Positions 41,098-61,714 are shown, numbered from the stretch's first letter. The stretch is 64,000 bases of DNA from Candidatus Omnitrophota bacterium (GCA_041651455.1 JBAZJG010000006.1:25409-89408), one strand, 5' to 3'. The notes: generated by a model from the sequence alone, not told the origin. Made by a program: numbers and translations.

Positions 41098-41721
41098 TTA
41101 TAGTAGACGCTTCTTTTCGAGTTTTTCTTTCAGGTTCTTTTTCGCCCGCGCGACCGTCGTGGAGACCGTGTTTACCGGGAGCTCCAGGGCTGCGGCTATC
41201 TCCGCATGCTTCATCCCGTGCAGCAGGCTCATCCCGGCAACCATCCTCTCCTTCGGATTGAGCCCTTCTATCGCCGAAGCCAGTTCCGCCCGGGCCTCGT
41301 TCAGCTGCGCCTGCCTGTCCGGGCCGTCCGCGCCGGAAGGCAGGACCTCCTCGAGCGTCCTCCCGTCATCGTCTTTGCATATCTGTTCATATAAAGACAC
41401 GGAAGACGGAGGGCTCTGCCTCCTCGCCCTCCTGAAATATTCTATGGCCGCGTTGCCCGCAACCATCGCGAGCCATCCCGCGACCTTACCGGGGTCCCTG
41501 AGCTGGCTTAACTTGCCGCCTGCCCATAAAGCGACAAAGACATCCTGGTGGATGTCGTTGATGTCTTCCTCGCTATGATCATATCCGTAACGCCTGAGCC
41601 GGTCGCGTATGGCCCAGTAGACCACCTTCGAATACCTTTCGACGAACGCATCCCACGACTTCCTGTCCTTGTTTATGCAACCGAGCACAAGCTCTTCGGG
41701 ATGATCGTTACGGTCCATCAC
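41098..41721 (-). CDS. ECF (sigma-70 family, group 4) RNA polymerase sigma factor
   Basis: 207 aa. Region 2 (DINDIHQDVFVALW, VAGWLAMVAGNAAIEYFRRARR) and region 4 HTH (MSLLHGMKHAEIAAALELPVNTVSTTVARAKKNLKEKL). Confidence 0.8.
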   Translation of the reverse strand: MMDRNDHPEELVLGCINKDRKSWDAFVERYSKVVYWAIRDRLRRYGYDHSEEDINDIHQDVFVALWAGGKLSQLRDPGKVAGWLAMVAGNAAIEYFRRARRQSPPSSVSLYEQICKDDDGRTLEEVLPSGADGPDRQAQLNEARAELASAIEGLNPKERMVAGMSLLHGMKHAEIAAALELPVNTVSTTVARAKKNLKEKLEKKRLL

Positions 41722-42332
41722 TCTTTCGGCATTATCTTTTCTTCGAAGGCCTTGGCCGTCACCGGCATCGTATCCCTGAATATCTTGAGCAGGGCCTTCG
41801 CATATTCGCGTATCTCCGGCTGTGCCCCCTTATCGAGGCGCAGCTTCAGGAAGTTCATCAGGGAACGCGCATTGACGGTCCAGTAATAAAGGGTGTATAT
41901 GGAAAGCGGCAGTACGCCGCGCGCCTGTTCGCGTTTTATCCCTGACGATACCATCGATTCATAGGCGTCGAAAGCGTCGTTTATCGACTTCTTGTATTTC
42001 AGGAGCGCTTCTCCCGACAGGCTCCCGGGCGTGTAGAAATCCCTTTTCGCGAGGCAATAGCGCAGCGACATCTCGTTATACGTGCCGATGCGGTGGCGTA
42101 TCCACTGGCGCGCGACGAAAATCGGGCATTTGACGTCGAAACGAAAATAGGCATGCTCGAAAGGCGTGCCGTGGTCTTTTATTATCAGGTGCCTTATCAG
42201 CTTAGCATCCGCATCTGCACCTTGCGGCTCGCTCATGTAGCAGCGGCGCGCGCTTTCTATGACGGCCTTGTCCCCGCCCATCGAATCGACGAGCGCGACG
42301 TAACCGTTATCGAGGACTTTTATCTGCTGCAT
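41718..42332 (-). CDS. thyX: FAD-dependent thymidylate synthase ThyX
   Basis: 204 aa. ThyX signature RHR...S (ARQWIRHRIGTYNEMSLRY). Overlaps the sigma factor start (ATGA). Confidence 0.85.
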   Translation of the reverse strand: MQQIKVLDNGYVALVDSMGGDKAVIESARRCYMSEPQGADADAKLIRHLIIKDHGTPFEHAYFRFDVKCPIFVARQWIRHRIGTYNEMSLRYCLAKRDFYTPGSLSGEALLKYKKSINDAFDAYESMVSSGIKREQARGVLPLSIYTLYYWTVNARSLMNFLKLRLDKGAQPEIREYAKALLKIFRDTMPVTAKAFEEKIMPKE

Positions 42333-42468
42333 CTTTCTTGGCTTTTTCTTTCTTCTCGTAGCATTCGGGGCAGTTATACATCGGCTTCGCCAGCGTCCTG
42401 TCGTAGCCGGCAGCCACGACGACCCTCTTTACTTCAGGGACTTCACGTCCGCAGGTATCGCATTTCAT
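42307..42468 (-). CDS. Unannotated small zinc-ribbon protein (53 aa, two CxxC pairs)
   Basis: Minus strand: ATG at 42468-42466, 7 nt after GGAGGAG. Encodes MKCDTCGREVPEVKRVVVAAGYDRTLAKPMYNCPECYEKKEKAKKDAADKSPR, stop TAA at 42309-42307. Overlaps the thyX start (42332) by about 25 nt in another frame. Too short for the ORF track. Confidence 0.5.
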   Translation of the reverse strand: MKCDTCGREVPEVKRVVVAAGYDRTLAKPMYNCPECYEKKEKAKKDAADKSPR

Positions 42469-42521: not shown

Positions 42522-43349
42522 CTATTTAGGCCGGCGCGCGACAAAAGCCAGGAATACCGCTATTACTATTAACCCTATTATGACCATCATGACCGACGAG
42601 AAAGACAGCGCCAAGGCCGGGGCGGGTGCAGCGAAGACCGCTATGCCCCATTCGCTCGGGTCGGCGTAAACATTCTTCGTCCCGTACCAGGTAAACTGCA
42701 GTTCCCTCTTGTGCGTATCGGCGTCGTCCACCGAGATATCGAAATCTATCTTCCTGCCTACTTCGGGTTTGAACCCGCCGAGGGCCTTGAAGGGTATCTT
42801 CGACTCGATTATGTAGCCCTTGTCCCACCTTACCGAGGCGACCTCTATGCCGCCGACATAATCATCCCGGCGCCATACCCATTCTCCCGCCTTGATATCC
42901 TTTTCGTTGCCGGGGCTTATGCCGATCTGGTAGTCCTTCTTCCCGAAGAACATCCTCTTCGGGTCGGCCTTATCGTCGAGCCCGAGCATTATCTCTAACG
43001 CGTCGCCGTCCCAGATGTCCGGGCCCTCCTTGCTGTTGTCGAAAGGCACGTCATCGGTGACCTTAGCCGCCACATACAGAGCGTCGTCATCCCATAGCAT
43101 GTAGATATCGGCGCTGAGGTCTTCCTTGCCGGACCATACGTTATACATGAGTATTTCGTAGGATTGTTTGTCCATCCTTATGGTATAACCGGGGTATTTG
43201 CTAAGGTCGCAGTCGACCTTTACCGGTTTTGAGGCCTTATGGATGCGGACTTCGGGTTTCGGTAACGGCTTATCCTGCGCCTGGCACTGCTGGGGGGGAA
43301 CGGAAAATAAAAAAAGGGCTGCTGCCGCGAGCGGTAATAGCTTTTTCAT
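42522..43349 (-). CDS. CBM9-like carbohydrate-binding domain protein with signal peptide and C-terminal TM anchor
   Basis: 275 aa. CBM9-like core (DIYMLWDDDALYVAAKVTDDVPFDNSKEGPDIWDGDALEIMLGLD). C-terminal hydrophobic helix plus RRPK. Confidence 0.55.
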   Translation of the reverse strand: MKKLLPLAAAALFLFSVPPQQCQAQDKPLPKPEVRIHKASKPVKVDCDLSKYPGYTIRMDKQSYEILMYNVWSGKEDLSADIYMLWDDDALYVAAKVTDDVPFDNSKEGPDIWDGDALEIMLGLDDKADPKRMFFGKKDYQIGISPGNEKDIKAGEWVWRRDDYVGGIEVASVRWDKGYIIESKIPFKALGGFKPEVGRKIDFDISVDDADTHKRELQFTWYGTKNVYADPSEWGIAVFAAPAPALALSFSSVMMVIIGLIVIAVFLAFVARRPK

Positions 43350-43367
43350 CTGGACCTCCGGGATTTT

Positions 43368-45722
43368 CTATATTCTACCAGAAATCCTCTGGGGAATCCA
43401 GTGGGGATGTGCCTCGTCAAGCGGCTCACCGTTCACGAGGACCTTACCTTTCGAGACCCTGATATCATATTCCTTCCCGCGGAAGGAACGCTTCATCGCG
43501 AACCCGTCCCATGAAGAAGGGAGCCGCGGGTCCACCGTCAGGCCGTCGAGCGTCGCCCGGACACCGAGTATCCAGTCGGTAAAAGCACGGAACATCCACG
43601 CGGACGTCCCGGTAAGCCACGAATGGCTCCCGCGCCCGAATTGCGGGTGGTCGGGCCCGAAGAGGAACTGGCTGTAGACATACGGCTCGACCCTGTAGGT
43701 CTCCGCGCCCGCCCTTTTCGCGGCGACCGCAGGTAGCAGCTTGTGGTAATAGTCGAACGCCCTGTCCGCGCGGCCGAGCATCGCCTCGGCGATCACCGCC
43801 CAGGTATTAGCATGGCAGAATATCGCGCCGTTCTCCTTTATGCCCGCCGGATAGTTTATCAGGGAGCCGATATCGTCCGGGCCGCTCGTATAGGAGGGCC
43901 AGCATATCCTGATGCCGAGGTCCGTATCGAGGTACTTCTTGACGGCATCCATGCATCTGATGCCGCGCGCGCGGTCCGCAACACCGCTTAGCACCGCCCA
44001 GCTCTGCGTATTTATATGTATCTTCCCCTCCTCGCATTCCTTCGAGCCGACGGGCCGCCCGTCGTCGGTAAAAGCCCGTATATACCATTCGCCGTCCCAG
44101 GAGGTCTCGTTTATCCGTTTCTTCATGCCGTTGTATATCTTCGTGAAGTTTTTCGCGTCCCCGGTCTTCTCCATCTCTCCGGCAAGTTCGGCCATCTGCT
44201 TCGCGACATAGCAAAGGAACATCGCGACCCATACCGATTCGCCCCTGCCTTTCCTGTCTATGTCGTTAAGGCAGTCGTTCCAGTCCGCGTAGAACATCCT
44301 CGGCAGGCCGTGCGGCCCGCAATTCGCGAGCGTATAATTCACCGCGCGGACCATATGTTCGTATATCGTCCCGTCCGTCCCCTCGATATATGGCGACTTG
44401 TCCTCGAGTATGGAGTAATCGCCGGTCTCGCAGATATACGAGTATACGGCCGGGATGATCCAGAGATGGTCGTCGGAATATTTCTTCGGTTCGCCGGTCC
44501 CGACCGTCGGGTAGAAGAGATGGTACGCGTGCCCGTCCGCGTACATGTTCTTCGCGAGCAGTTTTATCTTCTCCTTCACCTGCGGCGCTATCGCGTGGAC
44601 GACGCCGAGAGTGTCCTGGCTCGTGTCCCTGAAGCCGATGCCGCGGCCGGTGCCGGTGTTGTACATGAGCGACGCGTAACGCGACCAGTCGAACGTGGTC
44701 CTCGACTGGTACTGGTTCCATATATTTATGTTCGCGTTGACCACGGGGTCCGGCGTCTCGACCCTCAGTTTCGACGTATATTCTTCCCAGTACCCTTTGA
44801 CGCGCTCCAGCTCATGCGCGACATGGCTCTCGTCCGAGTATTTCCGCAATATCCTGTCCGGGGTCAGCTTGTTCTCATACGCGTCGACGCCGAGGACGAC
44901 CGTTACCGCCTTCCGCTCCCCGGGCTTGAGCTCAAGGCGCGCCGAGAGCGCGCCGATAACATTCCCGCCGGTGACCTTTGAACCTTTGTGCCTGCCGGAC
45001 TTCATCGCTTCCGGGTTCGTCTCGCTGCGGTACCTGCCGATGAATGCCTCCCTCTCGCAGTCGTAGCCGCGTATCTCGAGGTTCGTGACCGCGAAGTACG
45101 CGCGCGAGAAGTTGCGCTTGAAGTACCCCTTCTTCTTATTGTAGAAGGAATAGTATATCGCCTTGTCGCGGCTGTCGTATTCGGCGACCGAGAAATAGTG
45201 GAGGTTCGGGTGGAACATGAACTCTTCCGACGCGTCGAAGAGCGCAAACTCCACGTAAGGCGTAACCGTTATAGACCGCGCCCGCTTGCCGGCGTTCGTT
45301 ACCTCCACGGACCATACTTCGAGGTTGTCGTCCAGCGGCACGAAATACGTGACCTCGCTGGTTATCTTTTCGTTCTCGGAGGATATCTTAGTATACCCGA
45401 GCCCGTGCCTGCACTCCCATGCGTCCGGAGCCCTGCAGACGGGCTGCCACCCGGAGGACCAGTATTCTCCCGTATCATCGTCCCTAAGGTATACGTACCT
45501 GCCGGGCCTGTCGAGGGGCACGTTGTTGTACCTGTACCTGGTTATGCGCTGGTACTTCGGGTCTTCGAAAAAACTGTATCCGCCGCCTGTCTGCGATATA
45601 AGCGCCGCATACCTGCCGTTGCAGAGGTAATTTATCCACGGCGTAGGGGTATCGAACCTGTTTATTATGAACTCCTTCCTGTCCCTCGAAAAACCGCCGT
45701 AATCCATATCGATGCCTTTCAT
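43368..45722 (-). CDS. Glycoside hydrolase family 94 (cellobiose/cellodextrin-type phosphorylase, formerly GT36)
   Basis: 784 aa. N-terminal beta-sandwich, (alpha/alpha)6 barrel, size and motif layout typical of GH94 (WINYLCNGRYAALISQTGGGYSF, YHLFYP, FCHANTWAV). Likely true start at the second ATG (45707). Confidence 0.7.
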   Translation of the reverse strand: MKGIDMDYGGFSRDRKEFIINRFDTPTPWINYLCNGRYAALISQTGGGYSFFEDPKYQRITRYRYNNVPLDRPGRYVYLRDDDTGEYWSSGWQPVCRAPDAWECRHGLGYTKISSENEKITSEVTYFVPLDDNLEVWSVEVTNAGKRARSITVTPYVEFALFDASEEFMFHPNLHYFSVAEYDSRDKAIYYSFYNKKKGYFKRNFSRAYFAVTNLEIRGYDCEREAFIGRYRSETNPEAMKSGRHKGSKVTGGNVIGALSARLELKPGERKAVTVVLGVDAYENKLTPDRILRKYSDESHVAHELERVKGYWEEYTSKLRVETPDPVVNANINIWNQYQSRTTFDWSRYASLMYNTGTGRGIGFRDTSQDTLGVVHAIAPQVKEKIKLLAKNMYADGHAYHLFYPTVGTGEPKKYSDDHLWIIPAVYSYICETGDYSILEDKSPYIEGTDGTIYEHMVRAVNYTLANCGPHGLPRMFYADWNDCLNDIDRKGRGESVWVAMFLCYVAKQMAELAGEMEKTGDAKNFTKIYNGMKKRINETSWDGEWYIRAFTDDGRPVGSKECEEGKIHINTQSWAVLSGVADRARGIRCMDAVKKYLDTDLGIRICWPSYTSGPDDIGSLINYPAGIKENGAIFCHANTWAVIAEAMLGRADRAFDYYHKLLPAVAAKRAGAETYRVEPYVYSQFLFGPDHPQFGRGSHSWLTGTSAWMFRAFTDWILGVRATLDGLTVDPRLPSSWDGFAMKRSFRGKEYDIRVSKGKVLVNGEPLDEAHPHWIPQRISGRI

Positions 45723-45726
45723 ATAT

Positions 45727-45739
45727 ACTGGTTGTATAC
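45727..45739. promoter_or_regulatory. Operator-like inverted repeat TGGT-N5-ACCA (site A) upstream of GH94
   Basis: actgg tt gtatacca at 45725-45739. Lies 3-20 nt upstream of the GH94 start codons and 25 nt downstream of the stop of the GntR/LacI-type regulator. Confidence 0.45.
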
Positions 45740-45763
45740 CATAGTTATCAAAAAAAATAACCT

Positions 45764-46903
45764 TTATTTCGGTTTCGCGCTCGATCCCCTTACAACGAGG
45801 TCGACGGGTATAACTTCTTTCGTCGCGATATTTATCCGCCCCTCGATCCTGTCTATTAGCTTCTTCAGCGCTATCGAGCCCATCTCCTCCTTCGGCACGT
45901 TAACGGTGGTCAGCGGGGGCGTAGAGAGCGCGGCCCATTCTATATTGTCGAAACCGACGATAGATATGTCGCGCGGTATCGAAAGGCCGCTCTTTTCGCG
46001 TATGGCTTTCATCGCGCCCATGGCCGCCTCGTCGTTGATCGCGAAGACCGCGGTAGGGAGAGGGTTCTTCTTCAATATCTTCTCCATCGCCTTATACCCT
46101 TCCTCGACCATGTAATAGCCTTCTATGACGAGGTTGTCGTCGTATTTGATCCCGGCCTCCTGGAGGGCCGCCTTATAACCCTCGAGCCTGCCTATCGACG
46201 CGGGCTGGTCCTGCAGCGGGGCGCGTATCATCGCGATACGTTTGTGGCCGAGGTCGGTAAGGTGCTTCACGGCCAGGTATCCGCCGTTCCTGTTGTCGGG
46301 TATGACCGAATCTATCGCGGGCTTCGAGATCTCGTTATCTACGAGGACGAGCGGGAATTTCTTGTCGTAGAGGCTCAGGACCGTCGTGCGGTCGAGCCCC
46401 CCTATGACGATGATGCCGTCTACGTTGTTCTCCATCGCCCATCTCGCGATATCGCGCTCATCCTTGACCGAGGTCACGAAATTGAACGAGAGCGTGCATC
46501 CCATCCTCAGGGCTTCCTTCTGCATCATCGAGAATATGCCGACGTAGTAAGGGCTCAATATGGGAGATTGCGAGGTCGGGTTGAGGCGCCTCAGGATACA
46601 CGCGACGTTCTTGCGCCTCGACTGGCGCTTCATCGATGAAAAGGCATGGGCTTTCTGCAGTCCTTCCGCGTCCGAGACGAACGTCCCGGTGCCGGGTACG
46701 GAATACAGAAAGCCCTCCCTTATCAATTGCGCGATGCCGCGCCTTAATGTGATGCGGTTGATCCCGTGCTCCTTGCTCAGGATGCGTTCCGAAGGTATCG
46801 GTTCCCCGGGCTTGAACTGGCCGGCCTGGACCTGCTTGCGCAGTATATCGGCGAATTGCTGGTAGAAGAACTTTCCGCTCGACTTGTCCACCTTCGGGCT
46901 CAC
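45764..46903 (-). CDS. Transcriptional regulator with GntR-type wHTH N-terminus and LacI/PBP-type sugar-binding C-terminal domain
   Basis: 379 aa. GntR HTH (FYQQFADILRKQVQAGQFKPGEPIPSERILSKEHGINRITLRRGIAQLIREGFLYSVPGTGTFV), then a periplasmic-binding-protein-like type 1 fold (DGIIVIGG, LVLVDN, IGFDNIEWAA). Confidence 0.75.
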   Translation of the reverse strand: MSPKVDKSSGKFFYQQFADILRKQVQAGQFKPGEPIPSERILSKEHGINRITLRRGIAQLIREGFLYSVPGTGTFVSDAEGLQKAHAFSSMKRQSRRKNVACILRRLNPTSQSPILSPYYVGIFSMMQKEALRMGCTLSFNFVTSVKDERDIARWAMENNVDGIIVIGGLDRTTVLSLYDKKFPLVLVDNEISKPAIDSVIPDNRNGGYLAVKHLTDLGHKRIAMIRAPLQDQPASIGRLEGYKAALQEAGIKYDDNLVIEGYYMVEEGYKAMEKILKKNPLPTAVFAINDEAAMGAMKAIREKSGLSIPRDISIVGFDNIEWAALSTPPLTTVNVPKEEMGSIALKKLIDRIEGRINIATKEVIPVDLVVRGSSAKPK

Positions 46904-46915
46904 GGGACCCTCCTG

Positions 46916-47539
46916 TTATTTGATATCGACGACCTTAAGCTCGTCGATATGTATCGTGACGGATTTCTTGCCCTTGTTATATGCCGGGCCGACCGCGAAC
47001 TTGATCTCTTTAAGCTCGGCCGGGTTGAAATCTATGCCGGTAACCATCTTGCTGTTGTTCGCGTCCCAGTACTGCCCCTTCTTGGGATAGGCGGTGAACG
47101 GTATGACCACCTTCTGCCACTCCTTGGTAGTCCTGACGAAGTTCGGGGTAGCCATGACACCTATCTCCGTCTTGTTGCCGTCGCTGTCGTCCGCGTCTAT
47201 GAGTATGACCTCGAAGTTCTCCCCGCCTTCCGCACCTTTCACCCAGAACTCTATGCCGGGTTTCTTATACTGTGTAAGGTCCGCGAGCGGATAATGCCCC
47301 ACCGCCGCGCCGGACCACTGCGTGCAGTCAAGCGTCGCCGTAAGGCAGGCGTCTCCCGACTTTGCGCCGGACTTGTTGATCTCGAACTCCGTGCCTCCTC
47401 CGTATACGTATTTATACTGGCCGTTCGATTCGTCTATCACGTCGATGTAATAATCTACCGTCTCGGCCTGCGCAAGCCTCGCTGCGCCTACAAGCGCCAA
47501 ACCGCACAAGAACATTACCGCAAACACCCTCTTTCCCAT
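46916..47539 (-). CDS. Secreted beta-sandwich (CBM-like) protein
   Basis: Track ORF starts at TTG 47584. ATG at 47539 (MGKRVFAVMF..., after AAAGGGGG) gives a signal peptide. The C-terminal module resembles the PEP-CTERM protein and the four tandem paralogs. Confidence 0.45.
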   Translation of the reverse strand: MGKRVFAVMFLCGLALVGAARLAQAETVDYYIDVIDESNGQYKYVYGGGTEFEINKSGAKSGDACLTATLDCTQWSGAAVGHYPLADLTQYKKPGIEFWVKGAEGGENFEVILIDADDSDGNKTEIGVMATPNFVRTTKEWQKVVIPFTAYPKKGQYWDANNSKMVTGIDFNPAELKEIKFAVGPAYNKGKKSVTIHIDELKVVDIK

Positions 47540-47541
47540 CT

Positions 47542-49266
47542 TTACTGCCCCCTTTCTTTGAATACGACAAAGCCCCACTGGCAAGGTTCCTCATAAAATC
47601 TCTCGTCCCCCGAGAGGACCATCTGAGTGTGCCTGTCCTTCGTGTCCGAATCGTTCAATGCCGCGTTGAAGCTGACCTTCATGCCGGGCGACGGTACAAA
47701 GTCCTGCGAGAATGACTTCCACGGCACCACCGCCTCGACAATATACCCGCCGGCTGCGCCCTCCGGCTTATATACCGCCGACTGCACTCCTTCGACCCTG
47801 TTCTTCAACTGCCATGACCATCTCTGCGGGATCACTTCTTTCCTGTTGCCGGTACTGAAACCGATCTGGTAATCCGCCGCGTCGAAAGCCATCCTGTTCG
47901 GGTCGGCCTCAGGGTCGAGGCTGAACGCGATCTCGAAACTGTCGCCGTTCCATATCGCGTCGCCGCGCTTATCGTTGATGAAGGGCTTGTCGTCCTTTAC
48001 TTTTGCCGCGACATAAAGGTTCGCCTCGTCCCACATCAGGTATACTTCCGCGCTTATATCGTCGGGGCCTTTCCAGATATCCTGGCCCATGATCACGTTC
48101 CTCTTGTCGCTTATCACGACCGGCACAACATCCGCCCATTCGGAGAGGTCGCCGTCCGCCGTGACGGGTGCGGCCGCCTTTATAATCTCGATCACCGGCC
48201 TTGCGTATTCCGCCTGCGGGGCCGGCCTGAGTTCCGCCGTGACGCCCTCCGGAAGGCTGAACCCTTTCAGCAGTTTGGAAAAATACACGGGGTCGCTCTT
48301 GAAATACGGGTCGGATACCGCTTCCGAGAACGCCTTGAGTATATCATTTTTCCCGTGAAGCCGCCAGTCGCATTCCTTCTTTATATTAAACCACACAATT
48401 GCTTTTACGCGCGGGAATTTTTGCCTGAGCGCAACAAAGGCGTCTTTTATCCATTGTATCTTGTCGCCGCCGGCATCGCCCGAGGCGAACTCGCCTATCA
48501 TTATCGGTTTACCGGGATATTTTTCCGTCAGCTGCTTATAGCGCTTCGCGAAAATCTTCTCGAACGGGTTCCAGCGGCTCCACTTCTCGGCCGTGCCCCA
48601 GTTATAACCGTCTATAGATACCCAGTCGACGTAGTTGTCCCCCGGGTAGTAATTGCTGTAGGTGTTCCACTGGGTCCACGGCACCTCGGTATCCATGACG
48701 CACCAGACCCATATCGCGTTATCGGCGCCGACCTCTTTAAAGAGGTCGTATACGTGGCGCCACGCCTTAATGTACTTCTTCGGGTCCTTATCGTTCTGGG
48801 CGCCGGACCACGGGTACCAGTTGCCGTCCATCTCGTGGCCCATACGAAGGAAATACGAGGTCCCGAGTCTCTTTCCGCGCTTAGCGAATGTCCTTATATA
48901 TTCGTCGTATTGCCCGTTGATTATGTTATCAAGGTAGATTATGTCCTTGCCGTCCTTCTTTATCCAGGGTTCCCATGTGACGTGGGGTATCGCGCCGTAA
49001 TCGACGATAGCCTTGCAGTCCTCCAGCGGAAAGATCTTCTGCCAATCGATGTAGAACATCACGGAGCCGGACTTCTTGTTTGTGGCGGCGTCGAAACGGT
49101 TTATCGGCGCGATGCGTATGGGGGTGTTCTCCATGAATATGCCCCACAGGCAGCCTTCGGGGATGTCCTGCGCCGCGGGGTCCGCTGCCGCGCAATCCGC
49201 CCTTCCGCAGGAGGCGAAAAGCGCGATGGACAGGAATAACGGTATCATGGCCGGTATCAATCTCAT
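47542..49266 (-). CDS. Glycoside hydrolase family 26 (beta-mannanase-like) with C-terminal CBM9-like module
   Basis: 574 aa. Signal peptide. GH26-type TIM barrel (MFYIDWQ, RMGHEMDGNWYPWSG, WVWCVMDTEVPWTQ, WFNIKKECDWRL). C-terminal CBM9-like segment (EVYLMWDEANLYVAAKVKDDKPFINDKRGDAIWNGDSFEIAFSLD). Confidence 0.65.
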   Translation of the reverse strand: MRLIPAMIPLFLSIALFASCGRADCAAADPAAQDIPEGCLWGIFMENTPIRIAPINRFDAATNKKSGSVMFYIDWQKIFPLEDCKAIVDYGAIPHVTWEPWIKKDGKDIIYLDNIINGQYDEYIRTFAKRGKRLGTSYFLRMGHEMDGNWYPWSGAQNDKDPKKYIKAWRHVYDLFKEVGADNAIWVWCVMDTEVPWTQWNTYSNYYPGDNYVDWVSIDGYNWGTAEKWSRWNPFEKIFAKRYKQLTEKYPGKPIMIGEFASGDAGGDKIQWIKDAFVALRQKFPRVKAIVWFNIKKECDWRLHGKNDILKAFSEAVSDPYFKSDPVYFSKLLKGFSLPEGVTAELRPAPQAEYARPVIEIIKAAAPVTADGDLSEWADVVPVVISDKRNVIMGQDIWKGPDDISAEVYLMWDEANLYVAAKVKDDKPFINDKRGDAIWNGDSFEIAFSLDPEADPNRMAFDAADYQIGFSTGNRKEVIPQRWSWQLKNRVEGVQSAVYKPEGAAGGYIVEAVVPWKSFSQDFVPSPGMKVSFNAALNDSDTKDRHTQMVLSGDERFYEEPCQWGFVVFKERGQ

Positions 49267-49282
49267 TGGTTTACCTTTCTAT

Positions 49283-49297
49283 ACAGGTAGTATACCA
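49283..49297. promoter_or_regulatory. Operator-like motif (site C) upstream of the GH26 gene
   Basis: acagg ta gtatacca at 49283-49297, in the 55-nt gap upstream of the GH26 start (49266). Confidence 0.4.
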
Positions 49298-49321
49298 CAT
49301 CATTCGTAAATTGCAAATATT

Positions 49322-50041
49322 TTACATCGCCCTGCCGGCGCGCAGGGAAGCGGTATATGCTCCGCATCTCTTATATCCGGCCCAGGCCTTGCCGCTTACC
49401 TTCGGGTCGGGGTCTATCTCCGAGACTATAAGATAGCACATCATGGCCGCCTGCCCGTATTCCGCACGGTCGGGCCCGTCGCAGGCCTTCGAAAGGCCCT
49501 CGTAGTACTTCGCCGCCTCGAGATAATTCCTTGATGCCTGTTTCTTCTCGTCGCCTGTCTTCGAACGCAGGCCCGCAATTATACCTTCCGCGCTGCCGCC
49601 CGGCTCGATGCCCGGCAGCCTCAGCTGGCCCGCCAGGCCGCCGTTGCACAGCGCAATGCCCTTTTCTGCCAGCGTCTCCATGCCTTCCGGAGGGCTGTAT
49701 CCCTCCGCTTCCGCGCCTGCCCGCGCCCGGCAGGCGATGCCTTCACTGGCGCACCCTTTTACGACCTCAAAACATCCCCTTGCGAGGATGAAGTACCTGC
49801 TCTTCTTCAACGGTATATCATGCTCTTTTGCGCGCTTCATGAGCTTCTCCGCAAGATCCAGGTATGCCCTGCAGCATGACTCGCGCTCCTGCCTGTCCTC
49901 GATACGGCTTATCCTGCCTACCGCGATCTTCACGTCGGGATCGCAGTTCGGCATGAATATGCCGTCATCGGCCGCGCAGGCCCCGAAACTTAACATTGCC
50001 GCAAACGCTAATACGAAGCTCTTCATCCGGCACCTCCTCAT
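49322..50041 (-). CDS. Hypothetical secreted Cys-rich protein
   Basis: 239 aa. Signal peptide and about 14 Cys. No recognisable family. Start overlaps the stop of the GspK-like gene by 4 nt. Confidence 0.35.
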   Translation of the reverse strand: MRRCRMKSFVLAFAAMLSFGACAADDGIFMPNCDPDVKIAVGRISRIEDRQERESCCRAYLDLAEKLMKRAKEHDIPLKKSRYFILARGCFEVVKGCASEGIACRARAGAEAEGYSPPEGMETLAEKGIALCNGGLAGQLRLPGIEPGGSAEGIIAGLRSKTGDEKKQASRNYLEAAKYYEGLSKACDGPDRAEYGQAAMMCYLIVSEIDPDPKVSGKAWAGYKRCGAYTASLRAGRAM

Positions 50042-52185
50042 TGCCAGTAGACGATCTGCGCCCTTGGCATGAACGATACGGTAACATCCTCAAGGACCGC
50101 GGTCTCGCTATACCAGGGTTTTGTCGCCGCCAGCGCGTTATCGTTGGAAATGAAATTCGCCCTGTACTGTATCGAGGACGCCGCCGGCGAGGTGATCCCG
50201 CCGCCGGCCCCCGGCGCCTGCCACGTATTGCCGCCGTCAACGCTTGTGAGCAGGTCAACCCTTTCCGAGGCCGCATTTGCCGTGGACGGGACGGTTACGG
50301 TTCCCGCGATCGAACCCCAGGCCGCGACGGCGCCGGTGCCGTTCGGGGCCGACACATAATAGCCGTCCTGCGGTATTATCCTGACATTGTCGAAAGCCGG
50401 CAGGTGGTATTCCCCGTATAACCTCATGAGCCCGGCCGCGTTCGTCCCGCTGCCGTTTATATTCGAGAAAGTGTAATTGCCTTCCTGCATCCTGCCCGAG
50501 GAAGCATTGCAATAAGCCCAATATATCCTGTTCTGGCATACCACGCGCAGCGTCTTGCGCAGGACATAGGGCTCCGAATAATTGGCCCATGAAGGGCTAG
50601 CCCATATATGCAGCATCCCGGTATGGGGCAGGGGCCCCGGGTCCACGCCGTACGCAACGCCCTGCTGCATGTCCTCAAGGTAATAGCTCGCGTCCCCGGC
50701 GCTCGTCCTCTTGAAGACGATCCTGCCTACGTCGTTCTGGAACCTGAAAGCGTATAATGCGGGGTTTGTTATGGGGTACTCGTAATCGATCGGCTCCATA
50801 GCGTCCCACCAGAACCTCATGCGCATGTCATAGGTCCTTATCTTGTCGTCTATATACACCTGCGCGCTGTGGTTAGTCCACATCCATCTCGGGGAAGCCT
50901 CTAAGCCGAGGTCGCAGGTCGGCCATAATTTCGTATTATCGGAGGTCTCCGTGTCGTACTGCCCAATGACCGTCGTGTTCCATATCCCGTCCCTCGGGTT
51001 CCATTCGTTATTCGTCCAGTCGGTCTGCTGGCCGACATTGCCGTCTATATTCTCGGTGAAATTGTCCCAGAACCCCGCCTTTATCGAGTTCTTTATTACG
51101 TCGTAATCCGTTACAGCGGCACCGTTCCAGTCCTGGTCGGACCTTACCGGGCAGCTGTCCATGAAATTCACCCGGACCATCTCCCCGTTCGACATATCCC
51201 CCTCCCCCGCGCCGGAGGCCCAGTTGTCGTTGCGCCATACCCGGGCGAACTGGCCCTTTGTCGTCTCGTTCCATATATCGAAAATTTTTATTACCGCATG
51301 GGCCTGCCTTGACGCAACGGCGATCCCCGCGATATTCCTCACGGTCCCCGACGACGTCATTTCATAATAACCGCCGGAATTGAAGCAGAACTCCGTCGAA
51401 TAGGCCGCCGGCTTCGTCCTGTTCGGGTTCGCGCCGTCCTTTACTTCCCTTCTCTCCGCAGGGTTCAGCCCGATATAATTGTCAATGAACGCGTCGAACT
51501 GCTGCCAGCCGGTGAACGGCCGCGCGGCGATGATCGCCTGCGCAAGGCCCTGCGACTTCGCGTCGCTGTTTACGAGGCTGCGGAGCACCGCCCGCAGGAC
51601 GGGTTCCGAAGACGTGTTGATATTGACCGGCGCCCTTTCCTCCGTCGTGGTATCGTCAGGCAGGAAAGTATTCCGGTCCTTATAACCGTATAATGTGACA
51701 TATTCCTTTATCGAGTCGTATTTGGCGGCGCTTATGCCCGCCCTGATCTTTATCTCTTCCTTTGTGGTATACGGGGCGTTATCCACGACAGCCTGGCACT
51801 CTATGGAAGTCAGCGGGTTGCCCAGGGCTGTGTTAAGGTTTTGCATCATCTGGCCGATCCTGCTGTTTTCGGTATTGTTCACGTTTATCTGCCTCGCGCA
51901 ATCTATCACCGTGACCGTATAGCCGCCTTCAGAATAACCGGAATACCATGCTTCCGAAGACGTATCGAAAGCGGTATTCGCGGCCCCTTCCGGGCCGTTT
52001 TTGAGCTCGGCTATGGCCTTGGCGATCCCGGCTTCCGCGAGGTACCTCGCCTTTAAGCCCCTTGAGTAGTTCACGGCCTCCTTGCCGGCCAAAAGCATGT
52101 TCACGGCAAAGGTCGTGCCTATGAGCGCCATCAGCGATAACACGCCCACCACGAGTATCAGCGCCACGCCTTTCTTACCGCGCAT
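50038..52185 (-). CDS. GspK-like minor pseudopilin N-terminal region fused to a ~450-aa Trp/Asn/Tyr-rich extension
   Basis: Likely start ATG 52185 (MRGKKGVALILVVGVLSLMALIGTTFAVNM). GspK-type N-terminus without Glu+5. HhH-like region (SEPVLRAVLRSLVNSDAKSQGLAQAIIAARPFTGWQQFDAF), then a long aromatic-rich C-terminal region. No other T2SS or type IV pilus genes in the window. Confidence 0.45.
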   Translation of the reverse strand: MRGKKGVALILVVGVLSLMALIGTTFAVNMLLAGKEAVNYSRGLKARYLAEAGIAKAIAELKNGPEGAANTAFDTSSEAWYSGYSEGGYTVTVIDCARQINVNNTENSRIGQMMQNLNTALGNPLTSIECQAVVDNAPYTTKEEIKIRAGISAAKYDSIKEYVTLYGYKDRNTFLPDDTTTEERAPVNINTSSEPVLRAVLRSLVNSDAKSQGLAQAIIAARPFTGWQQFDAFIDNYIGLNPAERREVKDGANPNRTKPAAYSTEFCFNSGGYYEMTSSGTVRNIAGIAVASRQAHAVIKIFDIWNETTKGQFARVWRNDNWASGAGEGDMSNGEMVRVNFMDSCPVRSDQDWNGAAVTDYDVIKNSIKAGFWDNFTENIDGNVGQQTDWTNNEWNPRDGIWNTTVIGQYDTETSDNTKLWPTCDLGLEASPRWMWTNHSAQVYIDDKIRTYDMRMRFWWDAMEPIDYEYPITNPALYAFRFQNDVGRIVFKRTSAGDASYYLEDMQQGVAYGVDPGPLPHTGMLHIWASPSWANYSEPYVLRKTLRVVCQNRIYWAYCNASSGRMQEGNYTFSNINGSGTNAAGLMRLYGEYHLPAFDNVRIIPQDGYYVSAPNGTGAVAAWGSIAGTVTVPSTANAASERVDLLTSVDGGNTWQAPGAGGGITSPAASSIQYRANFISNDNALAATKPWYSETAVLEDVTVSFMPRAQIVYWQ

Positions 52186-52288
52186 CTTATCCCCGCCTGT
52201 AAATAGTTTAGGGAGGCCTGAGAGTTGGGGGACTGCATTACTATCAGACCTCCCCAAACGAACTGGGTTGTCTATACTTAGAAGCGGA

Positions 52289-52933
52289 TCACTTCTTCCT
52301 TCTGGAGGCCGCTAACATCCCGACTAAACCCGAGCCGAGAAGCAGCAGGCTTGCCGGTTCCGGTACCGCCTGGATGTCATCGACGCCGAAGTCTACGCTG
52401 CCTCCGGGTGCGGTGCCGCCGCATGCCACGACCAGGTTGATCTGCTTGAGGTCGCCGGTCCATACGTCATCGCCGGTCCCCGCGTTCTGGTCGACAAAGT
52501 TCGCGAAAGGCAGCGATATCGTCTTCCAGCCCGTCCAATCGACGGGCGTGTAGGTCGGAGAGCCGTAATAGCCGCCCGCGAATACATCGCCGTCGTTCTC
52601 GTACAGCTCATACTTGATCGTGCCGTAGCTGCCGTCTCCCTTCACGCTGACGACCAAGTCTGACAGGCCCGACCAGTTCTGCGGTTTGTAATTTCCCCAT
52701 CCGCCCAAATACCAGTTGCCGTTCACATCGGTGCCGTTAAGCCTTAGGTAATTACCGCTGGGCCCTCCCGCAACCGTGGCCTCCGAAAGCTCTCCCGTAT
52801 CCTGGAATCCGTAAGAACCGGAAGGCAGGGCCGGAGGAGTCGAGGTCTCAAAATCCTCCCAGGTTGCAGCCGAAACGCCTGATGCGAACAGGAGGGACAC
52901 AGCCAAAACGACTAAAATAGAGAATCTCTTCAT
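52289..52933 (-). CDS. PEP-CTERM sorting-signal protein with secreted beta-sandwich (CBM-like) domain
   Basis: 214 aa. Signal peptide. C-terminus VPEPASLLLLGSGLVGMLAASRRKK is a textbook PEP-CTERM exosortase signal. Confidence 0.8.
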   Translation of the reverse strand: MKRFSILVVLAVSLLFASGVSAATWEDFETSTPPALPSGSYGFQDTGELSEATVAGGPSGNYLRLNGTDVNGNWYLGGWGNYKPQNWSGLSDLVVSVKGDGSYGTIKYELYENDGDVFAGGYYGSPTYTPVDWTGWKTISLPFANFVDQNAGTGDDVWTGDLKQINLVVACGGTAPGGSVDFGVDDIQAVPEPASLLLLGSGLVGMLAASRRKK

Positions 52934-52977
52934 TATTCTTTTTCACCCCCTTCCCGTCACCATCTCCCCATATATAT

Positions 52978-52992
52978 ACTGGACGTATACCA
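52978..52992. promoter_or_regulatory. Operator-like motif (site B) inside a larger AT-rich palindrome upstream of the PEP-CTERM gene
   Basis: actgg ac gtatacca at 52978-52992. Embedded in atatatatactggacgtataccagtataatatatat. Lies 45 nt upstream of the PEP-CTERM protein start (52933). Confidence 0.45.
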
Positions 52993-53063
52993 GTATAATA
53001 TATATCGGGCATAAGTCAAGGGTAAATATTTGTTAATTTTGGGTGCGTATTACGGCAGGAACT

Positions 53064-55648: not shown

Positions 55649-57037
55649 CTAGTTGGGTTTCTTGCCTACCCTCGGAGGCTCTACTACATCGCAGCCCTTC
55701 GCCCATAATTCCTTGAGGGCGTAGTATGCCTTCTTCGGGATCCTCTTATTGACACCGTTCTCCTTCTCGAGGCTCATGCCGACTATGCCGTACCATTCCT
55801 CGTTCATGTTCATGTGGCCTTCGACCTCGATGTCGAAATAATAGGCGCCGTTCGTCCAGCCGGCTGTCTCATCCTGGACATACCAGCTCGCGGGGTTCGC
55901 GGCATCATGCTTCCACCACTCGTCGTTCCATTCGAATATGCACCCGCCGAGCACTGTGCCCTTGCCGGTCTTGCCGCAGGTGTTCCTGAGAATCTCCTTC
56001 CACTGCGATATAAGGAACTTAACCTGTATATCCTCATCCTCTTTTTTGGTCAGCGCGTTATACCTGTCGCAGCCGAACTCAGTCAGGACTATCGGCTTGC
56101 CGAACCTCTTGTTCGCCTGCTCCCATGTGTTGCCGAAGCTCATGCCCCTGTAGGATATGAGCCCGAGTATGTCTATATCGGGAGTCACCGTGCTGGCAAC
56201 ATCGAGGAAAAAGACCTCGCCGTTGCCCATCGCAACCGGATGGTTCGGGTCAATCTTTTTGATCTCCTTCGCAATGTCGTTAACGAAGCTGTAATACAGT
56301 TTCGCTTTCGCGTTCGCTCTCTCCTTCGGGTCTTCTATGCTGTCGAGCTCGTCGGAACCCCACGGAGCGATCTGGTCGTCGAAACTGTAATTATTCTCGT
56401 TGCCGAGGAGCCAGAAGAGTATCCCGGGCTCGTCCTTATAGGCCTTAACGATACTGAGGACCTCTTCCTTCACCTGCTGCCTGTAGCCCTCATCGGCGTA
56501 GTTAGGCGGCGGTATATCATAGATGCCGAGGTTATGGCCCATTATAGTGCGGATGCCGAACCTGCTGTAGAGGTCGGAAAGGACCTGTTTCGTTTCCTGC
56601 TGGCTCTCTCCCGGCTGGTAGAAACGCACCGTATTTATCGAGGCGTCCTTCATCAGCTGCCCGTCCACAAGCCACGGCTTGGTCGGGTCGCCCCACCAGT
56701 TATAGGTATAATCCTGCCCCGGAGGGACCGGCTGGTAGCAGACGCCCATTACCACATAGGTCTCGCCGTTTACGACAAGACGGAAATGGCCGTTGGGCAT
56801 CTTCTCGACGAACGTCTTCTTGCCCTTTGCCGCGGGTTTTGAGGACATCTTGCTGAAGAGGAAACATCCGCCTATCATGAATGACATCAACAACGCCAGC
56901 AACAATAACAGGTAAAACCCTTTCTTGCCATCCTTGCGCTTGTGGTGATGCGCATGCGCGGTGTGGTGGCCATGGTGATGCGCCCCCTGCCCCGCGTGGT
57001 GCTCGTGATGCTCGTAGCGTAAGTTATGTTGATCCAT
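55649..57037 (-). CDS. GH2-like TIM-barrel glycoside hydrolase (catalytic domain only) with His-rich N-terminus and TM/signal anchor
   Basis: 462 aa. Motifs FWLLGNENNY (acid/base region), VLTEFGCDRYN (nucleophile region), GGCIFEWNDEWWK (compare LacZ GGFVWDWVDQ). N-terminal HHEHHAGQGAHHHGHHTAHAHHH then a hydrophobic anchor. Paralog of 59668..61659. Confidence 0.55.
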   Translation of the reverse strand: MDQHNLRYEHHEHHAGQGAHHHGHHTAHAHHHKRKDGKKGFYLLLLLALLMSFMIGGCFLFSKMSSKPAAKGKKTFVEKMPNGHFRLVVNGETYVVMGVCYQPVPPGQDYTYNWWGDPTKPWLVDGQLMKDASINTVRFYQPGESQQETKQVLSDLYSRFGIRTIMGHNLGIYDIPPPNYADEGYRQQVKEEVLSIVKAYKDEPGILFWLLGNENNYSFDDQIAPWGSDELDSIEDPKERANAKAKLYYSFVNDIAKEIKKIDPNHPVAMGNGEVFFLDVASTVTPDIDILGLISYRGMSFGNTWEQANKRFGKPIVLTEFGCDRYNALTKKEDEDIQVKFLISQWKEILRNTCGKTGKGTVLGGCIFEWNDEWWKHDAANPASWYVQDETAGWTNGAYYFDIEVEGHMNMNEEWYGIVGMSLEKENGVNKRIPKKAYYALKELWAKGCDVVEPPRVGKKPN

Positions 57038-57047
57038 TTTTTATTCT

Positions 57048-57659
57048 TTACTCGTAATAGATATCGTCAAAATAAATCGTGAAACCGTCCGGGTTATCCG
57101 CAGCGCTCGCTGCCCAACAGAACCCGCCCGAAATATAGGTCAGGTCTTTGCCCGTAAGGTCGATGACATATTCCTTCCACTCCGGCGTGAGCGTCAGCGG
57201 CCCGATAGAAGCGGTATCGGTATCCGCGTACTCACCGGTAATGCCTCCTGTCTTTACCTCGGCAAGCACTTCGCCGCCCTTGCCGCCCCTGGCCCAGAAG
57301 ACCAGTTTCTTGGCACCTGTCAGGTCGAAACCGCCCGATTTCATGCCCCAGTTGTTCGCGGGATTCTGCCAGTAGATGCCGCACCAGCCGGCTCCCTGTT
57401 TCTGTTCGCCGGTGCAGGTTATCTTGATGCAGGTCGTACCTTCGTGCGGGTTCTCCTTCCATCCGGTGTCAAGCTTGATATCGCCATAATCGCCCATCCA
57501 GCCGGAGGGGATATAATGGTTATCGCGCGATGACCTGTCGGCATAAACATTGAACTTCTTGAACTCGGCATACGAAACGCCTGCCGCGCTCACTAACAGG
57601 ACTAACGCGGCAATAATTAATACTGACTTTCTCATTACATTACCCTCCTTGTTCTCCAC
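57048..57659 (-). CDS. Tandem paralog 1 of a ~200-aa secreted beta-sandwich (putative carbohydrate-binding) protein
   Basis: 203 aa (probable start M9, MRKSVLII...). Signal peptide. Conserved core EFKKFNVY...NHYIPSGWMGDYGDIKLDTGWK...TTCIKIT...QKQGAGWCGIYWQNPANNWG...FDLTGAKKLVFWARG...GGITGEYADTD...EWKEY.IDLTGKDL..ISGGFCWAASAADNPDGFTIYFDDIYYE. Confidence 0.6.
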   Translation of the reverse strand: MENKEGNVMRKSVLIIAALVLLVSAAGVSYAEFKKFNVYADRSSRDNHYIPSGWMGDYGDIKLDTGWKENPHEGTTCIKITCTGEQKQGAGWCGIYWQNPANNWGMKSGGFDLTGAKKLVFWARGGKGGEVLAEVKTGGITGEYADTDTASIGPLTLTPEWKEYVIDLTGKDLTYISGGFCWAASAADNPDGFTIYFDDIYYE

Positions 57660-57660
57660 T

Positions 57661-58248: not shown

Positions 58249-58284
58249 CTGCGATCCCCCTTTTTTTCGCGAAGCTGATACGGT

Positions 58285-59650: not shown

Positions 59651-59667
59651 TGCTCAACCCCCTTTCG

Positions 59668-61659: not shown

Positions 61660-61714
61660 GCCTTTTGCGCCTATACAATTATACCTTTTAAGCGCATAAA
61701 ATCAATACAAGACG

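Follow-up and report, generated by a model that had tools for sequence, protein, structure and literature searches.

Candidate operators shared by three transcription units of a predicted beta-glucan locus in an Omnitrophota bacterium, and the GntR-LacI chimeric regulator encoded among them

A glycan locus of about 10 kb from Candidatus Omnitrophota bacterium carries near-identical short sequences upstream of three of its genes, together with a gene for a putative sugar-responsive regulator, and the question arises whether these sequences are the operators through which this regulator controls the locus. The window, that is, the whole stretch of DNA analysed herewith, is 64 kb in length, and the motif scan of the source genome covered these 64 kb. 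Taking together the motif and how well it is conserved, the promoter-like sequences that it overlaps, the architecture and DNA-contact residues of the regulator, and the beta-glucan character of the enzymes, we consider it probable (about 0.7) that the three sequences are operators of a locus-encoded, autoregulated and sugar-released repressor of three transcription units.

The gene string proposed in the first-pass annotation of this DNA was confirmed by Pfam, which gave PEP-CTERM plus CBM11, T2SSK-like, GH26 plus CBM9, CBM30/11, GntR plus Peripla_BP, GH94 and CBM9 for the genes listed below in three predicted units, A to C.

52289..52933, minus strand: unit A gene 1, secreted CBM11-like protein with PEP-CTERM anchor (Pfam)
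52206..52259, minus strand: hairpin with 16-bp stem, between the PEP-CTERM and GspK-like genes
50038..52185, minus strand: unit A gene 2, GspK-like minor pseudopilin (Pfam), probable start ATG 52185 (MRGKKGVALIL...)
49322..50041, minus strand: unit A gene 3, 239-aa Cys-rich secreted protein
47542..49266, minus strand: unit B gene 1, GH26 (Lic26A-type beta-1,3-1,4-glucanase-like) plus CBM9 (Pfam, PDB)
46916..47584, minus strand: unit B gene 2, CBM30/CBM11-like protein (Pfam)
45764..46903, minus strand: regulator, 379 aa, GTG start, GntR wHTH at residues 14-76 and LacI/PBP-type sensor at 117-375 (Pfam)
43368..45707, minus strand: unit C gene 1, GH94 phosphorylase, cellobiose-phosphorylase-like (Pfam, PDB)
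42522..43349, minus strand: unit C gene 2, CBM9 protein with C-terminal transmembrane helix, end of the locus

The Cys-rich protein gave no family match, and a protein of 235-290 aa occupies the same position in the related loci L001, L006 and L009. The hairpin region (131 nt) folds at -42 kcal/mol (z = -2.0). In L005, L006 and L009, too, the orthologous gene is followed by a comparable hairpin, and the element is probably a partial terminator or an mRNA stabiliser. The next operon past the locus end has its own predicted promoter (42518-42490), and elsewhere in the window lie housekeeping genes and, at 55.6-64 kb, a second cluster of glycoside-hydrolase (GH) genes.

The substrate had been read as mannan, and this assignment has to be replaced. 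The best PDB matches of the GH26 protein are to the GH26 module of C. thermocellum endoglucanase H (E 5e-52 over about 270 residues), while mannanases in PDB match at E about 1e-4 or weaker, and by its nearest characterised relatives the enzyme is lichenase-like, of Lic26A type, and not mannanase-like. The GH94 protein matches cellobiose phosphorylases in PDB at E 1e-180 with the alignment running from residue 6, and its translation probably begins at the second ATG (45707), which agrees with the start called in L001. A Lic26A-type GH26 next to CBM11/CBM30 and a cellobiose phosphorylase of GH94 indicates beta-glucan as the substrate, and with a GH26 that is lichenase-like, manno-oligosaccharides are unlikely effectors.

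The pattern ACWGGNNGTATACCA was found exactly three times in the 64-kb window, on the plus strand at 45727-45741, 49283-49297 and 52978-52992, and not at all in 100 dinucleotide-preserving shuffles. Of the three 15-mers pointed out at first pass, the latter two had been placed correctly and the first (given as 45725-45739) was 2 nt off. Read on the minus strand of the genes, the shared block is longer, an 18-mer TGGTATACNNCCWGTATA at 45724-45741, 49280-49297 and 52975-52992, which has no further match in the 64-kb window at up to two mismatches; the three matches in the window with 3 mismatches are all located in coding sequence. All three sites lie in non-coding gaps of the minus-strand gene string, as had been noticed before, and non-coding DNA makes up roughly 6% of the window. 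The distance from site to start codon is 16 nt for GH94 (probable ATG 45707), 13 nt for GH26/CBM9 (start 49266) and 41 nt for PEP-CTERM/CBM11 (start 52933).

The core of the motif is an imperfect 13-bp dyad, TGGTAT-N-nnACC(A/T), with TGG-N7-CC(A/T) in all three sites and GG kept in both halves of each, in agreement with the GntR-family operator signature NyGTNxACNy or TNG-Nx-CN(A/T) and with the GntR-type dyad suggested at first pass; the spacing of x = 7 falls between the 6 and 8 of AraR (PMC3592433). The 18-mer is asymmetric and has a weak right half-site, which departs from an ideal ATACCA at 2-3 positions; a further half-site-like GTATA is located 11 bp downstream of the first half-site. 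For the GntR family, palindromes accompanied by an additional half-site at 7-12 nt have been described, as have TGGTATAW repeats for NanR (PMC4494728). The candidate operators and the promoter predicted for unit A are as follows.

52992..53019, minus strand: predicted promoter of unit A, -35 TTGACT 53019-53014, 16-nt spacer, -10 TATACT 52997-52992
52975..52997, minus strand: candidate operator O3, 18-mer TGGTATACGTCCAGTATA at 52975-52992
49280..49297, minus strand: candidate operator O2, TGGTATACTACCTGTATA
45724..45741, minus strand: candidate operator O1, TGGTATACAACCAGTATA, located in the gap of 41 nt that separates the regulator stop from GH94

In the consensus scan the candidate operators overlap sigma-70-type promoters, as repressor operators would, spanning about -15/-7 to +3/+11 of the predicted promoters. 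The unit A promoter matches the consensus at 10 of 12 positions, both of its hexamers, TTGACT as well as TATACT, are kept in L001, L005, L012, L013 and L018, and the last base of its -10 hexamer is the first base of O3, which extends to a 23-bp dyad, TATACTGG-TATACGT-CCAGTATA. O2 encloses the extended -10 TG-G-TATACT (49297-49289) of a predicted promoter TTTGCA-17-TATACT (49317-49289), and O1 encloses an extended -10-like TGGTATACA, for which promoter prediction gave no clear -35.

The regulator belongs to the GntR family by its match to PF00392 (E 1.5e-13, residues 14-76, above the gathering score), and its residues 117-375 match Peripla_BP_3, Peripla_BP_1 and Peripla_BP_4, so that the fusion of a GntR wHTH to a LacI-type sugar-binding domain, recognised at first pass, stands. 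This is the architecture by which the AraR subfamily is defined, a GalR/LacI-fold effector domain C-terminal to a GntR DNA-binding domain (DBD) (PMC4494728). The nearest DBD in PDB is that of NagR/YvoA (3e-14, 56 bits), followed by the AraR N-terminal domain (6e-10, 42 bits); for the C-terminal domain (CTD) the best match is PurR (2e-39), the AraR CTD matching at 1.5e-19, and the sensor scores 139 bits to PurR/RbsR/CcpA versus 74 bits to the AraR CTD. No NCBIfam equivalog reaches its cut-off with this protein. In NagR, Arg38, Arg48 and Gly69 read the GG of TGGT (PMC4333415), and their counterparts R40, R50 and G71 do not vary among 11 regulator orthologues.

Phylogenetic footprinting of the orthologous loci gave 17-18 invariant columns of 18 in the motif versus 48-58% in flanking non-coding DNA. 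Six orthologous loci have an identical O3, and in L005 it matches at 17/18 (flanks about 48% invariant); O2 is 18/18 in L001, L019 and L020 and 17/18 in L013 (flanks 58%); for O1, L001, L019 and L020 have the identical sequence and L002 a match of 17/18, there upstream of CBM30-GH26-GH94. Thus all three are exact in L001 and L020 (regulator 91% identical), L019 keeps sites 1 and 2, and L005 and L002 (74%) have single sites. Where the locus encodes a regulator orthologue at 74% identity or more, there are 14 motif matches in 139 kb, all in promoter regions and none in coding sequence, while loci without a close orthologue contain one in 136 kb, a chance match picked by the pattern scan itself. 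In a scan of the genome collection (596 Gb) with a strict pattern, matched by O3-type sites only, 5 of 7 matches were the O3 site of Omnitrophota MAGs. The first-pass annotation had held that absence from orthologous loci, or equal frequency inside genes, would speak against the motif, and on both counts the outcome is in its favour, in variant form for the more distant loci. With orthologues of 57-60% identity, a collinear variant, GTATACCAGTAGACTACCAGAATA, precedes the same genes and lies at changing distances from the -35, and the regulator promoters carry TGGTAT-N-ATACC-like dyads (L003 TGGTATTATACCG, L002 TGGTATAATACCC, L006 TGGTAGTATACCA). The variant reads as a direct, not inverted, repeat of ACCAG, to which a rigid dimer could not adapt. 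Site conservation is not universal: in L005 the GH94 gene is preceded by no recognisable site, and the CBM30 gene by only a weak one, TGATATAATACCT.

From these observations we infer binding of the regulator to the sites, repression, and the nature of the effector in the following way. The repressor would be a chimera of a GntR winged-helix DBD and a LacI/PBP-type sugar sensor, of AraR-like architecture, in which the two arginines conserved with NagR would read the GG of each half-site. O3 would control unit A with the PEP-CTERM CBM11 protein, the GspK-like pseudopilin and the Cys-rich protein; O2 would control unit B with the Lic26A-like GH26, the CBM30 protein and, as the last gene of this unit, the regulator, which would therefore autoregulate; and O1 would control unit C with the GH94 cellobiose-type phosphorylase and the CBM9 membrane protein. 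Since each operator sits on a sigma-70-type promoter, a bound dimer would exclude RNA polymerase, and a breakdown product of beta-glucan, cellobiose or a related oligosaccharide, would bind the sensor domain and release the repressor.

The link between protein and site is indirect and 64 kb of the genome is in view, and plain LacI regulators are encoded at other Omnitrophota glycan loci; the sites might thus be genuine operators of another transcription factor encoded elsewhere, such as a global carbon regulator, with the local chimera binding other DNA. We regard this as unlikely, because the motif tracks the regulator orthologue and changes form as the regulator diverges, dyads of the same type lie on the regulator's own promoter where it forms a separate unit, the TGGT half-site is what the conserved Arg/Arg/Gly of this type of DBD reads, and no operator site is found in the window outside the locus, the neighbouring GH cluster included.

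The left half of the motif, TGGTATA, reads the same as the consensus for an extended -10 in these genomes and occurs at unrelated promoters (15860 in the window, L023, L003), so that the motif is part promoter and part operator, and some of the similarity and conservation of the sites is due to the promoter and not to the operator. It could even be that the whole shared word is promoter architecture, an extended -10 (TGGTATACW) plus the conserved start-site region of three strong promoters, with no dedicated factor: TGGTATAAT, TGGTATATT and TGGTATACT are present at other predicted promoters of the window and related contigs, and TATAC(A/T) is the sole plausible -10 hexamer in O1 and O2. At O3, however, the upstream TATACT, preceded at 16 nt by a proper -35, takes the role of the -10, and the in-motif TGGTATACG lacks the T at -7, yet is conserved. 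Moreover, the downstream CNNCCWGTATA, which is missing at other promoters, is offset differently from the -10 in O3 as compared with O1 and O2, and the variant motif in L006 and L009 ranges from over the -10 to about +10/+35, which makes this explanation improbable. A translational or stability element in the mRNA leader, near the ribosome-binding site, would account for sites 13-41 nt from start codons and for the short and fairly constant Shine-Dalgarno distance in all variants, but is highly improbable, as O1 and O2 lie mostly upstream of any plausible transcription start, the motif regions fold no better than shuffles (z -0.6 to -0.7) and match no Rfam family, and in L022 CTGGTA repeats are oriented oppositely relative to the gene, which favours a site at the DNA level.

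As an operator-repressor pair, the system resembles AraR of Bacillus subtilis, in which an N-terminal GntR winged helix is likewise joined to a C-terminal LacI/GalR-type sugar-binding domain, and which is a sugar-released, autoregulated repressor with several operators of variable spacing, TNG-Nx-CN(A/T), on carbohydrate-regulon promoters (PMC3592433, PMC4494728). It is not an AraR orthologue, an assignment that we rejected: the operator is TGGTATACNNCCWGTATA and not ATTTGTACGTACAAAT, the targets are beta-glucan and not arabinose genes, and, as the sensor is nearer PurR/RbsR/CcpA and the DBD nearer NagR than the AraR domains, the chimera may be a fusion independent of AraR. Membership of the HutC subfamily (NagR/YvoA, DasR) was also rejected; the DBD is NagR-like, with the Arg/Arg/Gly contacts conserved, but in place of the UTRA/chorismate-lyase-like effector domain, for which there is no match, the C-terminus has the periplasmic-binding-protein fold. 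The NagR/DasR dre sites are TGGT...ACCA dyads, naturally imperfect, with full GG in one half only (PMC4333415); their core is 12 bp (TGGT-N4-ACCA), compared with 13 bp (TGGT-N5-ACCA) plus a 3' GTATA here. NanR of Escherichia coli is a GntR-family repressor whose TGGTATAW-repeat operator resembles the left half-site (cited in PMC4494728). It differs in being of FadR type with an all-helical effector domain, and in having direct repeats and sialic-acid genes as targets. The LacI-family CebR/CelR are cellobiose-released repressors on promoters of beta-glucan or cellulose utilisation genes, and would be functional analogues, with a LacI-type HTH instead of a GntR winged helix and a different palindrome.

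The proposed switch is of a textbook kind, in which a sugar-sensing repressor encoded nearby acts at operators on the promoters it controls; more interesting is the link of unusual surface proteins to sugar harvesting, by the predicted co-regulation of the PEP-CTERM binder and the GspK-like pseudopilin. The shared operator is the best available evidence that these two proteins work with the lichenase and the cellobiose phosphorylase. The N-terminal half of the pseudopilin (AlphaFold model, pLDDT 74) resembles XcpX/GspK (6utu_C, E 7e-7), its C-terminus bears a beta-sandwich extension of about 400 aa, and the C-terminal half shows weak lectin/CBM66 likeness in the model; full-length homologues fill the GspK slot in complete T2SS/T4P-like operons. 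The three-gene head of binder, pseudopilin and small protein recurs at other Omnitrophota glycan loci, with mannan-binding PEP-CTERM proteins, GH113/GH130, an ABC transporter and a LacI regulator. [quoted passage not shown]

To our knowledge, gene regulation in the uncultured Omnitrophota is essentially undescribed, and a defined 18-bp site with a 379-aa regulator offers a testable entry point. The substrate call for the locus is corrected from mannan to beta-glucan, and a vague annotation as surface protein gives way to a specific hypothesis for beta-glucan capture by very small cells; if true, the module would be a pseudopilus-based counterpart, in Omnitrophota, of polysaccharide-utilisation loci.

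The pattern ACWGGNNGTATACCA, proposed in the first-pass annotation for three near-identical sites, was found to have exactly three exact matches in the 64-kb window (45727-45741, 49283-49297 and 52978-52992) and none in 100 dinucleotide-preserving shuffles of it. The three-site motif is thereby confirmed, only the coordinates of the first site having been 2 nt off, and the accompanying gene calls were, every one, confirmed by Pfam. Read on the (-) strand of the genes, the common block is the 18-mer TGGTATACNNCCWGTATA. Its three copies, the candidate operators O1-O3, and the second glycan cluster of the window are as follows.

45724-45741, (-) strand: O1 18-mer, 16 nt upstream of the probable GH94 start (ATG 45707)
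49280-49297, (-) strand: O2 18-mer, 13 nt upstream of the GH26/CBM9 start (49266)
52975-52992, (-) strand: O3 18-mer, 41 nt upstream of the PEP-CTERM/CBM11 start (52933)
55649-63994, (-) strand: second glycan cluster, motif absent

At up to 2 mismatches the 18-mer gave no extra matches in the window beyond these three sites, and at 3 mismatches three matches, all within genes; the other approximately 50 genes of the window, including housekeeping genes and the second glycoside-hydrolase cluster (55.6-64 kb), carry no site. This second cluster encodes two GH2_C/TIM-barrel hydrolase-like proteins, a 759-aa CBM9 protein and four tandem paralogues of about 200 aa (57048-59650), which have no Pfam match and have in common a repeated ...YWQNP... 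segment (ACTGGCAGAATCCC at 57359, 57972 and 58605).

The source genome was covered over 64 kb; a Candidatus Omnitrophota MAG encodes a protein 100% identical to the regulator of the glycan locus. In the three closest loci (L001, L019 and L020; regulator identity 91-97%) the sites are kept base for base and the nearby non-coding DNA has drifted: all three sites remain exact in L001 and L020, and sites 1 and 2 in L019, with 17-18 of the 18 motif columns invariant in the alignments versus 48-58% of the flanking columns. At 74% identity one site is left in each locus, before the PEP-CTERM gene in L005, in which GH94 is preceded by no site, and as AGGTATACAACCAGTATA before CBM30-GH26-GH94 in L002. 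Upstream of the same genes, both in L002 and in the loci whose regulator is 57-58% identical (L006-L011), stands GTATACCAGTAGACTACCAGAATA, which is identical in five places though the flanks diverge, and which aligns with O3 without gaps at 17/24 positions, the common core being GTAKAC-NN-CCAG-WATA. As a control, the 18-mer was counted at up to 2 mismatches 14 times in 139 kb of loci with a close regulator orthologue and once in 136 kb of other loci, the single case being a chance match pre-selected by the pattern scan. Absence from orthologous loci and equal frequency in coding DNA had been named at first as observations that would speak against the motif; the retention at orthologous loci and the control count, which in the loci compared shows no such equal frequency, both favour it. 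When the species-representative genomes (596 Gb) were scanned with a strict pattern covering both motif forms, matched by O3-type sites only, 7 matches were obtained (7 loci returned), 5 of them the orthologous O3 in Omnitrophota-type contigs; a metagenome scan with the regulator profile returned 5 loci. Beside paralogous regulators of about 45% identity (L003 350-1468 and L023), no recognisable site of this type was found. A contig near-identical to the window in the stretch compared around O3 (L016, CAZYUB010000010.1) was deposited as 'uncultured Planctomycetia bacterium' and the proteins of the window are labelled Candidatus Omnitrophota, so one of the two labels is probably wrong.

The regulator of 379 aa is indeed a GntR/LacI chimera as first read: Pfam places a winged helix of GntR type at residues 14-76 and a domain of LacI/PBP type at 117-375. 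Within the GntR family, this combination is what sets apart the minor AraR subfamily (PMC4494728). The protein is no orthologue of AraR itself, since both domains score better to other proteins: the sensor domain to PurR, RbsR and CcpA (139 bits versus 74 for the AraR C-terminal domain), and the DNA-binding domain to NagR/YvoA (3e-14 versus 6e-10 for the AraR N-terminal domain). No NCBIfam equivalog reached the cut-off for the regulator. In NagR, the guanines of the TGGT half-site are read by Arg38 and Arg48 and the wing is anchored by Gly69 (PMC4333415); R40, R50 and G71 of the regulator align with these residues, and none of the 11 orthologues, the most distant of them 56% identical, differs at any of the three; conservation across the helix-turn-helix far exceeds that of the rest of the protein. 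GG is kept in both halves at all three sites, as TGG on one strand and CC(A/T) on the other; this arrangement, TGG-N7-CC(A/T), conforms to the signature TNG-Nx-CN(A/T) derived from GntR structures, in agreement with the GntR-type inverted-repeat character noted earlier. The spacing x takes the value 5 in FadR and, in two AraR operators, 6 or 8; AraR monomers tolerate altered spacing (PMC3592433). An additional GTATA lies 11 bp after the first half-site, as is the habit of GntR palindromes, for which a weaker extra half-site 7-12 nt away is documented, and the NanR operator consists of TGGTATAW repeats (PMC4494728).

A perfect palindrome was rejected: a long dyad with 8-bp arms is present in O3 only, and O1 and O2 have in common just TGG/CC(A/T), so that the 18-mer is not simply a palindrome. 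At up to 2 mismatches, the idealised dyad TGGTAT-N-ATACCA occurs 12 times in 181 kb, and 10 of these matches lie in promoter regions; as it matches the sites of the window only moderately, this dyad was retained as a working model. Where the regulator forms a unit by itself, dyads near to the idealised form lie on the promoter of that unit:

L003, TGGTATTATACCG
L002, TGGTATAATACCC
L006, TGGTAGTATACCA

We propose that a sugar-released, autoregulated repressor would occlude the promoters of three units, namely unit A (PEP-CTERM CBM11 protein, GspK-like protein and Cys-rich protein), unit B (GH26/CBM9, CBM30 protein and the regulator itself) and unit C (GH94 and CBM9 membrane protein). The probability of such promoter occlusion by the local regulator is put at about 0.7, binding, sign of regulation and effector being predicted. 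The first-pass interpretation is supported herewith, with corrections, and a chimera of AraR architecture with GntR-type operators on its target promoters, as predicted here from sequence, is an already known kind of switch. Counted against the repressor, beside the 64-kb coverage of the source genome, were three points: the 18-mer is asymmetric with a weak right half, L005 lacks the GH94 site, and the distant variant GTATACCAGTAGACTACCAGAATA reads as a direct repeat of ACCAG, which would call for DNA-binding domains on flexible tethers, such as are described for AraR. Beside these points stands the alternative that the 18-mer is an operator for an unlinked factor, which we consider unlikely; the residues aligned with the guanine-reading arginines of NagR are kept in the regulator of the locus itself.

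The similarity of the three sites could also come from promoter sequence only. The consensus scan predicted a promoter TTGACT-16-TATACT, with its -10 ending on the first base of O3, and, inside O2, a promoter TTTGCA-17-TATACT whose -10 is extended by a TG; within O1, TGGTATACA is an extended -10 to which no clear -35 belongs. Since TGGTATAAT, TGGTATATT and TGGTATACT were found at unrelated predicted promoters of the window and related contigs, the leftmost third of the motif doubles as the extended -10 consensus found locally, and the sites are similar in part because they are promoters. The remainder is not promoter-derived, as indicated by the TGGTATACG copy in O3, which is conserved although it cannot be a -10 (the T at -7 is missing, and 24 nt separate it from the -35), by the register of CNNCCWGTATA relative to the -10, which differs between O3 and O1/O2, and by the position of the distant variant, anywhere from over the -10 to about +10/+35; a promoter-only origin is thus quite unlikely. 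A promoter for an ECF sigma factor (gene at 41098-41721) was rejected, the sites carrying sigma-70-type -35/-10 hexamers. The related CTGGTA repeats of L022, in opposite orientation to the gene, the leaders of the three sites, folding no better than shuffles, and Rfam, with no family in the window except two tRNAs, argue for a candidate DNA-level protein-binding site, and an RNA element, rejected on the latter two results, is very improbable.

Promoter-like sequences were also observed at two other genes of the window:

14737-15853, (-) strand: prfB (RF2; PCRF and RF-1 domains)
42307-42468, (-) strand: 53-aa ORF with two CxxC pairs (MKCDTCGRE...NCPECYEK)

The first ATG of prfB, a gene with the classical site for programmed +1 frameshifting (GGAGG..CTTTGAC, near 15782-15790), lies just 6 nt after a TGGTATAAT extended -10 (15860-15868), and this suggests a leaderless or near-leaderless transcript. 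The 53-aa ORF has its own promoter-like TTGAAA-17-TAGAAT (42518-42490), and a called gene of about 53 aa directly follows the glycan locus also in L001, L002 and L005.

The effector of the proposed repressor was considered from the enzymes of the locus. The closest solved relative of the GH26 module is that of C. thermocellum endoglucanase H (E 5e-52), which we take to be the lichenase Lic26A, versus about 1e-4 for mannanases; the module is not mannanase-like. Cellobiose phosphorylases align with GH94 over its full length (E 1e-180), and CBM11 and CBM30 bind beta-1,4/beta-1,3-1,4-glucans. Taken together, the locus looks like a mixed-linkage beta-glucan and cellobiose system, with cellobiose or a related gluco-oligosaccharide as the likeliest effector and manno-oligosaccharides unlikely. 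Mannan or cellulose, read from the GH26 name alone, was set aside in favour of beta-1,3-1,4/beta-1,4-glucan, and beta-1,2-glucan is unsupported for the window, GH94 scoring 4e-124 to the GH94 domain of cyclic beta-1,2-glucan synthase versus 1e-180. In two orthologous loci at 58% identity, a GH162 protein of 1039 aa (beta-1,2-glucanase family; L009 14434-17553 and L011 10841-13960) follows the CBM30-GH26-CBM30 unit and GH94 is absent, so that the glycan specificity of the locus may differ between lineages.

Unit A opens with surface proteins, and for the GspK-like one, as for GH94, the longest ORF probably starts too far upstream:

43368-45722, (-) strand: GH94, longest ORF
50038-52257, (-) strand: GspK-like protein, longest ORF
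50038-52933, (-) strand: window copy of a recurring head module (PEP-CTERM glycan-binding protein; orphan GspK-like protein, 700-840 aa; accessory protein, about 250-360 aa)

The most likely starts are the second ATG (45707) for GH94 and, for the GspK-like protein, ATG 52185 (MRGKKGVALIL...) instead of TTG 52257, which leaves a non-coding gap of about 100 nt where the first-pass annotation had coding sequence. Between the PEP-CTERM and GspK-like genes is a strong hairpin with a 16-bp stem (52206-52259, (-) strand); L005, L006 and L009 have comparable hairpins 3' of the orthologous PEP-CTERM gene. By terminating transcription in part, the hairpin may keep the ratio of binder to pseudopilin high. 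In the AlphaFold model of the GspK-like protein (pLDDT 74), the N-terminal half matches the minor pseudopilin XcpX/GspK (6utu_C, E 7e-7), and the C-terminal beta-sandwich gives weak lectin/CBM66/DUF1080-like matches at most. Its approximately 66 homologues, all from Omnitrophota where the source is named, have the N-terminal half in common and a variable C-terminal half (Laminin_G_3 or PA14 possible). Some take the place of GspK in complete T2SS/T4P-like operons of the form GspE-F-G-H-I-J-[K]-PilM...secretin (L024 and L025). Others are orphans that stand at the head of various glycan loci, immediately downstream of a PEP-CTERM glycan-binding protein (L026 and two more places). One orphan locus combines a PEP-CTERM protein with mannan-binding domains, GH113, GH130, an ABC transporter and a LacI regulator, and the remaining ones carry ABC transporters with DUF5060, GH2 or GH116 genes. 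A full-text literature search found no description of this head-module arrangement. The common operator of the window counts as one line of evidence that a substrate-specific capture module recurs in Omnitrophota, a broader reading considered rather doubtful. The motif together with the regulator makes gene regulation and glycan capture accessible to experiment in a phylum that is uncultured.
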